Assembly: GCA_007376385.1 (NCBI GenBank)
Contig: VMGC01000003.1
Location: 69,259 to 133,258 of the forward strand
DNA from: Parcubacteria group bacterium Gr01-1014_8
Lineage (GTDB): Bacteria; Patescibacteriota; Minisyncoccia; Phycocordibacterales; UBA2100
Direction: 5' to 3'
Length of the DNA stretch: 64,000 nucleotides
Shown: positions 50,923 through 53,564 of the stretch, in pieces
Layout of the letters: each line of letters begins with the position of its first letter
How positions within the stretch are numbered: the first letter of the stretch is position 1
Program-made: the position numbers and the translations under genes
Notes under the pieces: generated by a model
Seen by the model: only the letters and a program-made list of their open reading frames with translations
Databases searched by the model: none
What the model was told of the DNA's origin: nothing

Positions 50923-52200
50923 TCAAACGAGTGTCTCATCAACAACGATCTGGCATTTTCCACGCGCTGTCGGCGGAATGTTCGCGACGAGTATTATTTT
51001 GACCGCAATAGAATTCCCAACTAACTCGCGAACGTTTGATTCGATTCTCTGTGTTGCATTGCCATCGAACAGAGCGCCCGGAACTATTCTCAATTCAAGT
51101 GCACCCTCGGCCGTTTTTGCGAACTGGTATTGGAACACGAGGTCCATGAACATATCCAGCGCTGCATCGAACTCCAGATGATGTATATCCCGCCCGCCGA
51201 AATTCAAGAACGCTGAATATCTTCCCTCGAACCATATTCTCGGAGTTTCAAGGCCGCATGTGCACCCCTCTAACGATATGACTCCGTGATCGCCTGTGTC
51301 ATACCGAATGAACGGCATGTTGTAGTTCGTCAGGTCTGTCAGAATTACCCTTCCCCACTGCCCCGGGGGAAGTACTCTTCCTTCTTCGTCCACTATTTCC
51401 GCAATGATCGATTCGCTGTGCAGGTGCTGTCCATCGTGATATGTGCATTCGCATGCCACAGCGGACATCTCTTCGATGCCGTACCGGTCATACACTTCGC
51501 TTTGCATTGCGGTTTCCAAAAATCCGCGCAGCGCGGGGGGAAGCATTTCGCCGAACGACACAATATATTTCGGCCGTATGCGGGGCAGAGAGAGGTCAGA
51601 GGACAATTTTTGCGCCAAAATAAACAGGATCGAAGTGTAACTCTCCAATACTTCCGGCTTGAATGACGCAAGCTTTCGTATCGCGTCTTCAGGATCGGAC
51701 AAGAACTGTTTGACCGGCATAAAAAAACGGTAGCGCGAGGAGTTCGAACGTATCTTGATGCGGGCGACGCGAAGTTTTGAGAAGTCGAACATAAAAGCAT
51801 GTTGCCAGGAAATGAATCTGAAACAGACCGATTCCAGATATCGCATATCAGTTGAATTGCGCCCGAATAAGAACGTGAACGGCTTCCCGCTCGTGCCCGA
51901 CGTGTTATACCACCGTGAAAATATCTGCTGGCTGTTGTCGATGAGCTCCTCACGCGGACGATCCAAAAAAGTTTCTTTTCGGGTTATCGGAAGCGAGGAG
52001 AGACCTTCCAAAGTGCGTATCTTTTCCGGCTCAATACCAGAAAGAGCATACAACTTTTTATACAAAGGTACGTTCGCCGCCGCATGCATGATGATCATCC
52101 GCAATCTTTTCTCCTGCCATCTTTGTATGGCCGAACGGGACCGACGATGCAAGAGATGAAAACGGAGATATTCGATGCTCTCGCGTATCTCATTGATCAT
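50923..52200 (-). CDS. PaaK-like adenylate-forming enzyme (phenylacetate-CoA ligase / F390-synthetase family)
   Basis: YNTSGTSGKPFTF AMP-binding P-loop in PaaK-type spacing. Confidence 0.65.
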   Translation of the reverse strand: MINEIRESIEYLRFHLLHRRSRSAIQRWQEKRLRMIIMHAAANVPLYKKLYALSGIEPEKIRTLEGLSSLPITRKETFLDRPREELIDNSQQIFSRWYNTSGTSGKPFTFLFGRNSTDMRYLESVCFRFISWQHAFMFDFSKLRVARIKIRSNSSRYRFFMPVKQFLSDPEDAIRKLASFKPEVLESYTSILFILAQKLSSDLSLPRIRPKYIVSFGEMLPPALRGFLETAMQSEVYDRYGIEEMSAVACECTYHDGQHLHSESIIAEIVDEEGRVLPPGQWGRVILTDLTNYNMPFIRYDTGDHGVISLEGCTCGLETPRIWFEGRYSAFLNFGGRDIHHLEFDAALDMFMDLVFQYQFAKTAEGALELRIVPGALFDGNATQRIESNVRELVGNSIAVKIILVANIPPTARGKCQIVVDETLV

Positions 52201-53564
52201 GTGATGTGCTTCGCCCGCTTCAGCGGGATGAATTTTATCGCCTTGCCGTTGGGTCCCTCCGGAATGTGTTCCACCACTTCCCAGGAAACTGCAGCGAGAG
52301 GGTGCAAGATGCTCTCAAGATTCATAGCCAGCTCTTCTTTGTAATTCTCAAAATAGGGACCAGGAATGACTTTGATGGTGAACGCAAAAGGCCCGGTCTG
52401 TACTATCTGAAATTGGTGCACCACTTTCGTATAGCGATCAAATATCTGGGAAAAATCTAGCGATGATACCGTCCTTCCGTCCTCGAATCTCAAGAGTTCA
52501 ATTTGGCGCCCTAGGATGCGTATTGTCCGCAGTGTCCGGCCGCATGAACAAGGCTCTTCGGAAATGACGCCCCTGTCGCCGGTATCGTAGCGAACGAACG
52601 GCATGACGCGATTATCGAATGTCGTAACGACTACTTTGCCCTCCTTACCATACGCGAGAGGTTGGCCCGTATCGTCAGTTATCTCGACATATGCCCATTC
52701 CTCGTTGATATGTAGGCGGTGCTGCTCGCATTCAAAAGCAAGCCATCCCAACTCACGGGTCGAATACGACAAAAAAACCTTGAGGCCAAAGGCTTGATTG
52801 ATCAGTGCACGCCCTTGTTCAGGCAACGCTTCTCCGCCGGCTACGAGGCCCCGGAGGGACAACGATATCCTGCGTTCATTCACGACACGCGCCAGTTCTA
52901 TGAGGGAAGAGGTGAAACCGAACATCACGACTCCTCGGCCGAAGGAATTCAGGAAATCGCGGAGTTCTTCGACTCGATAACGTACGGCATTATACCCGCG
53001 TGAAAAAAAGACCCGCCCGCGCGGTATCGTCACCCCCATGCGCTCACTGACCCTCATCGACACCACCGGATACGACACGCCACCGGCCGCTGTCCGGAAC
53101 ATGCGGGCACATATCGCATACGAGCGCAATTCATGATGAGCATCCAAATAAAAACAAAATGGCGTGCCTGTGGAGCCCGAGGTAAAATCGCGCGACCATT
53201 CATCATCACGATCGCCGTCTGTATAGAGAGTTTCAGAGACCCCGGTGAAATCTTTTTTTGATACGATAGAGATCCGAGAGAAAGGTCCATGTTCCAGCGA
53301 CGACAGATCCATGGAGTGAACTAGTATCTTTTCTCTCCAGAACGCAAATCTCTGCGTCGAACAGAGAAGCGCGGCAAGCCTCTTTTTCTGATATTCGATC
53401 ATTCGCCTGCGCGGCCAATATTGGCTTTTTCCGAGCGCCCAGATGTCAAATCGCAAAGGAATATACCGAACGGGACGGCACCAATATACGAGAACATTTG
53501 TCCATATTCTGTCGCTCCGCCACCACTTCTTCAAAAGCGTAATGTACGCGAACATAACCCTCAA
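52197..53564 (-). CDS. PaaK-like adenylate-forming enzyme, paralogue of the previous gene (start probably about 53402, MIEYQKK...)
   Basis: FTSGSTGTPFCFYLD motif; 4-nt overlap with the downstream paralogue. Confidence 0.65.
   Translation of the reverse strand: MRVMFAYITLLKKWWRSDRIWTNVLVYWCRPVRYIPLRFDIWALGKSQYWPRRRMIEYQKKRLAALLCSTQRFAFWREKILVHSMDLSSLEHGPFSRISIVSKKDFTGVSETLYTDGDRDDEWSRDFTSGSTGTPFCFYLDAHHELRSYAICARMFRTAAGGVSYPVVSMRVSERMGVTIPRGRVFFSRGYNAVRYRVEELRDFLNSFGRGVVMFGFTSSLIELARVVNERRISLSLRGLVAGGEALPEQGRALINQAFGLKVFLSYSTRELGWLAFECEQHRLHINEEWAYVEITDDTGQPLAYGKEGKVVVTTFDNRVMPFVRYDTGDRGVISEEPCSCGRTLRTIRILGRQIELLRFEDGRTVSSLDFSQIFDRYTKVVHQFQIVQTGPFAFTIKVIPGPYFENYKEELAMNLESILHPLAAVSWEVVEHIPEGPNGKAIKFIPLKRAKHIT

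Follow-up and report, generated by a model that had tools for sequence, protein, structure and literature searches.

A tandem pair of PaaK/CapK-type ligases, a candidate optional tailoring module of an azole-peptide-type gene cluster in Parcubacteria

The stretch analysed (the window) is 64,000 nucleotides of contig VMGC01000003.1 from Parcubacteria group bacterium Gr01-1014_8 (assembly GCA_007376385.1), a reduced genome of the Candidate Phyla Radiation (CPR). The subject is a tandem pair of genes for adenylate-forming ligases, ligA and ligB, together with the gene cluster that surrounds it. On the minus strand of the window, tuf and then rpsJ are separated by about 16.5 kb of other genes from rplC, the remainder of the S10/spc operon and secY. 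Genes rpsJ and rplC are ordinarily neighbours; here a whole cluster of azole-peptide type sits between them (window 40450-57981). Its minus-strand genes encode four membrane-anchored proteins, a 108-aa precursor peptide, a 397-aa polytopic membrane protein, and ligB and ligA. Its plus-strand genes encode a phosphoribosyltransferase (PRTase)-propeller fusion, then YcaO, then SagB, and also a Cys/His-rich protein of 421 aa and an Lnt-like protein of 899 aa (Table 1).

The stop codon of ligB and the start codon of ligA share the tetranucleotide ATGA, an overlap of 4 nt. The longest ligB frame extends over 52197-53564 (-) from TTG; the true start is likely the ATG at 53555, on which the public gene call and the N-termini of orthologues agree. 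The two products are 31% identical over 324 aa (E 3e-36). The first-pass annotation had described two consecutive, overlapping ligases of the PaaK/F390 family with distinct P-loop motifs, and the translations, the shared ATGA and the identity value confirm this description. Both proteins keep the P-loop (A3, TSGxxGxP), the A5 Y..E, the A7 RYDTGD, the A8 GR hinge and the A10 GK with the catalytic Lys, so all membership motifs of the ANL/PaaK-like (CapK_C) superfamily are present in both, and the matches to structures of PaaK type are full-length. PDB matches include PaaK2 (2y4o), 4r1l and 9s3l, with values down to 1e-25; in the PDB profile search the nearest solved structures are 4r1l (7.6e-46) and 9s3l (4.9e-37). 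NCBIfam DVU1553_fam_AMP matches the two ligases at 4e-43 and 3e-28. The precomputed Pfam domain is CapK_C, and the CapK_C and AMP-binding matches are weak or faint. Scores against the named families are 100.4 (ligA) and 41.2 bits (ligB) for the PaaK equivalog TIGR02155 (cut-off 646.3), 104.8 (ligA) and 65.8 bits (ligB) for the haloarchaeal PaaK model NF041878 (cut-off 700), 66.3 and 52.6 bits for coenzyme F390 synthetase TIGR03335 (cut-off 458.7; a weak match, 2e-18), and 50.5 and 58.5 bits for the F390-synthetase-related TIGR02304 (cut-off 251.9). The ligases lie far under every NCBIfam equivalog cut-off and are therefore members of the superfamily that belong to none of its named families.

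About 110 orthologues of ligA are present at 38-56% identity, those with a named source being metagenome-assembled genomes of Parcubacteria type. Beyond them the next relatives reach at most 31% identity and come from many phyla; those outside the CPR have no YcaO nearby. A neighbour-joining tree places ligA and ligB in two separate CPR-only clades, each usually with one or two members per locus. Identity is 42% inside each clade and 25% between the clades. Conservation of at least 85% in both clades is found at 37 columns; the P-loop, the A5 Glu, RYDTGD, CxCG, the GR hinge and the A10 Lys are kept across both, and six positions differ consistently between them. Since the catalytic motifs are kept in both clades, both ligases are probably active; the pair goes back to an old duplication, after which both copies were kept. 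A separate, striking expansion of the PaaK-like superfamily is found in the Dehalococcoidia contigs L040, L058, L064 and L065, which hold tandem arrays of five to seven PaaK-like paralogues with no YcaO nearby.

Co-occurrence was counted over distinct ligA-anchored loci with at least 5 kb on either side (the window, L002, L004, L005, L006, L010/L086, L012, L014, L022, L085 and L087). YcaO/SagB or other genes of the cluster are present in 10 of these 11, in widely varying gene order. In L085/L090 and L101/L102 the genes YcaO, SagB, ligB and ligA follow each other co-directionally and tightly packed, with ligB tens of bases past SagB; the order in L013 is YcaO-SagB-PQQ-ligA. The reverse test was anchored on YcaO and covered 80 metagenome loci. 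Of the loci with a close YcaO orthologue, about half hold the pair: it is present in L090, L094, L099, L100, L101 and L102 (some of these ids denote one cluster twice) and absent from L111, L103, L092, L088 and L108, of which L111 shows the whole interval from L3 to S10. In a distant YcaO clade the arrangement is often YcaO-SagB-PRTase-propeller, never with ligases. The ligases thus lie nearly always within the cluster and the cluster is not always accompanied by ligases, which is how accessory tailoring enzymes are usually distributed. A role as obligatory partner of YcaO was rejected, complete ligase-free clusters being available (L111). A strict module of ligases and PRTase-propeller, suggested by adjacency, was likewise rejected, each occurring alone (L101/L102 versus L111). 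The link to YcaO/SagB peptide-modification genes drawn in the first-pass annotation is borne out by a neighbourhood kept despite rearrangement, by the operon-like YcaO-SagB-ligB-ligA layouts and by the nearby precursor.

The site between rpsJ and rplC is occupied also in L004, L014, L022, L085/L090, L087, L100, L102, L103, L108, L110 and L111. The cluster looks vertically inherited at this site, because many divergent contigs of Parcubacteria have it there as well. Parcubacteria, like the CPR in general, have tiny genomes and are not growable alone; a cluster of about 16 kb, maintained at this one site across many divergent members, thus represents a considerable and probably important investment.

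The window has two of the features by which clusters for linear azol(in)e-containing peptides (LAP) and thiazole/oxazole-modified microcins (TOMM) are recognized: adjacent YcaO and SagB genes, and a short precursor gene with a Cys/Ser/Thr-rich core. The precursor has a basic N-terminus, a hydrophobic helix and then a V-A-R-A-D-A-P motif, followed by a core (SCSSCSSCTSDGCSDGGCGGCAGDAGDAGDAGAGDCCDGCAGGSGGSGGK) that resembles microcin B17. Homologues with invariant A-x-A-D adjoin YcaO in more than 20 related loci, and their cores are rich in Ser, Tyr and Asp. A terminal Lys (GGK, GCK, GSK, EGK or CGK) ends the precursor in 8 of 10 clusters with ligases, in none of 5 reasonably resolved clusters without ligases, in none of 7 of the distant YcaO clade, and in 2 of 8 on contigs too short to exclude ligases. 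By Fisher's test the association of Lys with ligases has p 0.007, 0.003 or 0.0003 depending on the comparison set, shared ancestry being uncorrected. The precursor of L108 is close to those of L004, L005 and L087, yet has no terminal Lys, and no ligases are within view. In L012, where the ligases number four, the precursor contains two Lys.

On these grounds ligA and ligB are read as an anciently duplicated, translationally coupled and catalytically competent optional tailoring module of a Parcubacteria-specific pathway of LAP/TOMM type (probability about 0.55, from sequence comparison). Acylation of the peptide is plausible, and fits because the presence of ligases goes with the C-terminal Lys of the precursor. 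This Lys is the most likely site of action, by ATP-dependent acylation or ligation. Each ligase would use ATP to form an acyl-adenylate and pass the acyl group to an amine, most likely the epsilon-amine of the conserved C-terminal Lys; alternatively the Lys may form an isopeptide or lactam bond with a carboxylate activated by the ligase, for example that of a core Asp or of the C-terminus. The two proteins may form a heterodimer or catalyse consecutive steps, and would work in the cytoplasm, prior to export of the precursor with its signal peptide. Azol(in)es would be installed by YcaO and SagB; once export has taken place, the membrane protein of carboxylase fold and the anchored proteins outside the cytoplasm would come into play. 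Precedent for direct formation of esters or amides is found among the matches of the ligases: NatL2 (6siw), AjiA1 (6wuq) and BagE/FevW, matched at 1e-8 to 1e-14, are CoA-independent PaaK-like enzymes that transfer the acyl-adenylate straight to a hydroxyl or amine. They differ in that their substrates are small aromatic acids of benzoxazole and bagremycin pathways, not peptides, and the similarity is confined to the core of the N-terminal domain.

Several observations weigh against such a module. The Lys correlation comes from about 30 clusters, again uncorrected for shared ancestry. L022 and L100 carry ligases but have precursors without terminal Lys, and the precursors of L091 and L093 end in Lys with no ligase visible (short contigs). 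In L006 and L011 the pair is surrounded by housekeeping genes, and the 3-9 kb available per side contain no YcaO. Divergent CPR paralogues of the ligases adjoin genes for a DegT aminotransferase and TagF/GT2, a glycan context. Heterodimer formation and action before export are inferred only, and literature searches found no ribosomally synthesized and post-translationally modified peptide (RiPP) that uses a PaaK-like ligase.

Chief among the rivals is a function like that of CapK, in the formation of surface glycan or teichoic acid, with an acid activated and an amino sugar N-acylated or a CoA ester made; closeness to the azole-peptide genes would then merely reflect a shared cell-envelope island between rpsJ and rplC. 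It accounts for the loci that hold the pair without YcaO, and agrees with CapK_C as precomputed domain and with 4r1l, a Bacteroides protein, as best profile match among solved structures. It also draws on the divergent CPR loci L016-L018, L020, L028, L045 and L057, where ligase paralogues adjoin an aminotransferase of DegT/EryC1 type, in several cases with TagF-like or GT2 genes too, and on the many proteins of the cluster that are membrane-anchored and probably extracytoplasmic. However, the clade of the window's ligases has no glycosyltransferase, sugar-nucleotide or DegT gene within 10 kb, and neither the operon-like YcaO-SagB-ligB-ligA layouts nor the Lys correlation is expected from such a role, which is judged unlikely. 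The structures 4r1l and 9s3l, both named 'phenylacetate-CoA ligase', resemble the window's proteins in CxCG and in the conserved His ahead of the A7 region. Unlike them, the window's ligases form CPR-only clades with at most 31% identity to any non-CPR relative. Literature searches returned nothing on 9s3l or CapK, and no substrate for 4r1l or 9s3l.

The first-pass annotation had implied a partnership with the adjacent N-acyltransferase, in which the ligases would feed activated acyl groups to the Lnt-like protein for lipidation of the peptide. The gene is really present beside the ligases, as is the YcaO/SagB pair (Pfam, NCBIfam and the alignment with 5n6m); its E-K-C triad is intact, the protein also carries, by fusion, a homologue of the product of the gene next to ligB, and cleavage at A-x-A-D, if the motif is such a site, would free a new N-terminus for acylation. 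Enzymes of Lnt type take their acyl donor from membrane phospholipid at the outer face of the membrane, whereas adenylates arise in the cytoplasm. Moreover, the Lnt-like gene and the ligases occur together in no more than three distinct clusters (the window, L002/L003 and L010/L086), and W899-like matches are present also in L093 and L128, with no ligase visible there. Because of this topology and the poor co-occurrence the partnership is not supported and is very improbable. Rather improbable, too, is non-acyl chemistry or a scaffold function. A hydroxyl might be nucleotidylated, perhaps together with the PRTase domain to a peptide-nucleotide conjugate, or the pair might stand in for the missing E1-like partner of YcaO. 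Coenzyme F390 synthetase, which nucleotidylates a hydroxyl, is a member of the family; the PRTase domain of the cluster has an intact PRPP (phosphoribosyl pyrophosphate) motif, the precursor cores offer Ser, Tyr and Asp, and among the cluster frames scanned Pfam and NCBIfam give no match to an E1-like (C-protein), ocin-ThiF-like or RRE (RiPP recognition element) partner in any. As a scaffold, however, the pair would not be obligatory, ligase-free clusters retaining YcaO, SagB and precursor; a joint action with the PRTase is opposed by the independent occurrence of the two, and nucleotidyl and acyl transfer are not told apart at the level of sequence. The deposited name 'phenylacetate-CoA ligase' is almost certainly misleading. 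PaaK1 and PaaK2 of Burkholderia cenocepacia (PDB 2y27, 2y4n, 2y4o) are detectable homologues, with the compact ANL fold and adenylation motifs over the full length (E about 1e-25 to 1e-32), but lack the CxCG and E-C-x-x-H-x-x-H of the window's ligases, signatures (CxCG and H..H) common to 4r1l and 9s3l. In addition, the host genome is a reduced CPR one, the ligases have no paa operon and an entirely different genomic role, and no paa catabolic genes (paaABCDE, paaG, paaZ etc.) are present in the gene and Pfam lists covering the window. An ordinary catabolic function is ruled out by the NCBIfam scores and the absence of paa genes from the window and is effectively refuted. In the first-pass annotation the reading as non-catabolic and linked to peptide modification thus stands; the precursor gene, the CPR-specific cluster and the optional status of the module had been missed.

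The optional tailoring module remains the preferred reading. A wider one, tentative and on the whole doubtful, is that the pair makes a peptide modification new to RiPPs. The azole peptides would then constitute a new class that is vertically inherited and Sec-exported and whose YcaO does without an E1-like partner. This reading might comprise PaaK-type ATP-dependent acylation or cyclisation at the C-terminal Lys, or, with the help of the PRTase-propeller, linkage of the peptide to a nucleotide or phosphoribosyl group; handling of the exported peptide by a membrane protein of vitamin-K-carboxylase fold; and a lineage-defining system of Parcubacteria for the cell surface or host interaction, rather than a sporadic antibiotic cluster. 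Like known LAP/TOMM clusters, for example that of microcin B17, the window's cluster has YcaO and a SagB-type dehydrogenase adjoining a short precursor with a Gly/Ser/Cys-rich core. Unlike them, it has no detected E1-like or ThiF-like partner, ABC exporter or leader peptidase, and its precursor has a Sec-type signal/transmembrane helix. LAP clusters in the CPR are already known: 110 were counted by Sharrar et al. 2020 (PMC7298704), 51 of the genomes being Parcubacteria. The accessory set (the ligase pair, the PRTase-propeller, the carboxylase-fold protein and the Cys/His-rich repeats) is undescribed in PMC7298704 or other literature found, and so is a PaaK-type ligase in a YcaO pathway. The searches found no literature linking PaaK-like or F390-type ligases, PRTases or HTTM proteins with YcaO pathways. 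The azole chemistry of YcaO/SagB is here combined with features found in no described RiPP pathway by literature searches, namely PaaK-type ligases, a PRTase-propeller fusion, a membrane protein of gamma-carboxylase fold and a precursor with a signal/transmembrane helix. The link between ligases and Lys yields a concrete prediction, testable by heterologous expression; if it is borne out, enzymes of a new class would join those known to tailor peptides, and the ways in which these episymbionts form their surface or deal with hosts would become clearer.

Table 1. Genes and features of the cluster and its boundaries (window coordinates; TM, transmembrane)
Feature	Coordinates	Strand	Characteristics
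rplC (L3)	40450..41058	-	downstream boundary of the cluster; remaining S10/spc operon and secY beyond
Four conserved membrane-anchored proteins: 144 aa; 308 aa, Ser/Thr/Cys-rich; 287 aa, TPR; 380 aa, helical	41415..44863	-	
Precursor peptide, 108 aa	44869..45195	-	signal/TM helix, A-x-A-D-A-P motif, Cys/Ser/Gly/Asp-rich core ending GGK
Polytopic membrane protein, 397 aa, vitamin-K-dependent gamma-carboxylase (HTTM) fold	45270..46463	-	structural match to GGCX
Orotate-PRTase-like domain fused to PQQ/BamB-type beta-propeller	46531..48171	+	PRPP motif VIFVDDLINTGQS
YcaO, SagD-type cyclodehydratase-like, 475 aa	48217..49644	+	Pfam YcaO 3e-44; TIGR03604 6e-55; C-terminus ...PHPF
SagB-type FMN dehydrogenase, nitroreductase fold	49647..50375	+	TIGR03605 5e-36, 123.7 bits vs cut-off 78.4; Pfam Nitroreductase
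66-aa open reading frame, uncalled, downstream of ligA	50473..50673	-	Sec-type signal peptide and basic 8-Cys peptide (…ACTTQACATAHDYNSCMSICRNCYKGKRCGSYCAGWKR)
ligA, PaaK/CapK-type adenylate-forming ligase, 425 aa	50923..52200	-	translation; NCBIfam and PDB matches; motif TSGTSGKPF
ligB, paralogous PaaK/CapK-type ligase, 452 aa	52197..53555	-	NCBIfam and PDB matches; motif TSGSTGTPF
Membrane-anchored Cys/His-rich all-alpha repeat protein, 421 aa	53598..54863	+	divergent from ligB, 42 bp between
Lnt-like apolipoprotein N-acyltransferase, 899 aa	54863..57562	+	E-K-C triad; C-terminal domain homologous to 53598-54863 protein
rpsJ (S10)	57610..57981	-	upstream boundary of the cluster

YcaO scores 186.6 bits against TIGR03604, just below the cut-off of 219. 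Only about 100 residues precede the YcaO domain. The C-terminal P-H-P-F is invariant among orthologues and resembles the PxPxP motif of azoline-forming YcaOs. The PRTase-propeller goes with YcaO-SagB even in ligase-free clusters. Neither an ABC exporter nor a leader peptidase was found in the cluster, and Rfam gives no regulatory RNA there.

The 397-aa protein shares the fold of GGCX, the vitamin-K-dependent gamma-glutamyl carboxylase, which is grouped here with bacterial HTTM proteins such as SdpB of B. subtilis, but has no sequence-level match to HTTM or GGCX (Pfam, NCBIfam, PDB profile search). When each member of its family was scanned against Pfam, a single match at 0.14, to VKGC_lumenal_dom, was obtained. 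A Lys (K151) is invariant in the family; in GGCX the catalytic Lys is K218. Quinone- and O2-dependent carboxylation seems unlikely in a CPR organism. SdpB helps to mature a Sec-exported toxin precursor, which parallels the signal-peptide-bearing precursor of the window's cluster. A conserved single-pass membrane protein of 65-67 aa lies between the PRTase-propeller and carboxylase-fold genes in L004 (13310-13507), L086 (19580-19783) and L087 (13398-13601); it is not seen in the window, where these two genes diverge.

The 421-aa Cys/His-rich protein often adjoins the ligase pair in other loci. A good model shows a helical solenoid with invariant Cys and His and has no informative structural neighbour. 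Word-index searches for homologues of the 421- and 397-aa proteins returned 7-8 sequences each, so that the alignments are shallow. Pfam and NCBIfam give no match for the proteins of 421, 397, 380, 308 and 144 aa. The four membrane-anchored proteins next to the precursor are probably extracytoplasmic. The Lnt-like protein matches NCBIfam lnt at 1.5e-25, with 90.2 bits below the cut-off of 132.9; its LPE, K-Q-x-L-V-P-x-G-E-Y and C-x-E align with P. aeruginosa Lnt 5n6m (profile, E 7e-6). Transmembrane-like segments lie at roughly residues 17-250, and the catalytic domain should face outward, by analogy. Its C-terminal domain, an extra Cys/His-rich domain foreign to Lnt, matches the 421-aa protein at E 2e-7.

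The uncalled 66-aa frame may encode a second secreted peptide. Ahead of it lies the sigma70-like promoter match that scores best in the region (50827..50799, 11/12), and a homologue of the frame is found at the same place in L002/L003. Other small frames with a signal peptide and many Cys adjoin the ligases in L008, L013 and L014.

Extra enzymes are encoded between S10 and the ligases in several loci: a sulfotransferase and an ATP-sulfurylase/APS-kinase in L004 (2175-5871), an arylsulfotransferase and a UbiA prenyltransferase in L002 (1319-5671), two methyltransferases in L086 (16078-17498) and two sulfatase-family proteins in L087 (3474-6438). Tyr-rich stretches in the precursors of L004, L005 and L087 would suit sulfation. 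In L085 an AdoMet decarboxylase (9475-9831) lies between ligB and ligA. In L092 (1-11077) the left arm of the cluster (precursor, W380, TPR, W308) is present twice, with two SagB genes, in opposite orientation, which suggests local duplication of an azole-peptide cluster.

Elsewhere in the window a tmRNA gene, the sole Rfam match, is located at 4902-5292 (+) (139 bits, tag peptide ANKTARGVLSPIQAKDLGLVFA), with smpB close by. In the position of rpsE (S5), between L18 and L15, a gene for 215 aa (32103-32750, -) has no precomputed Pfam match. The window's gene list has no L30 gene, as is to be expected of the CPR. The stretch 58000-62300, between tuf and rpsJ, has a low GC content (0.41-0.45, against about 0.50 elsewhere) and encodes a RusA-like resolvase, a DUF2000 protein, a weakly cupin-like protein (Cupin_2, E 0.0018) and unknown frames; it may be the remnant of a mobile element. 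An 881-aa protein at 13218-15869 (-) is a classical AMP-binding (ANL) enzyme fused to a GIY-YIG nuclease domain, an unusual combination unrelated to the ligase pair.

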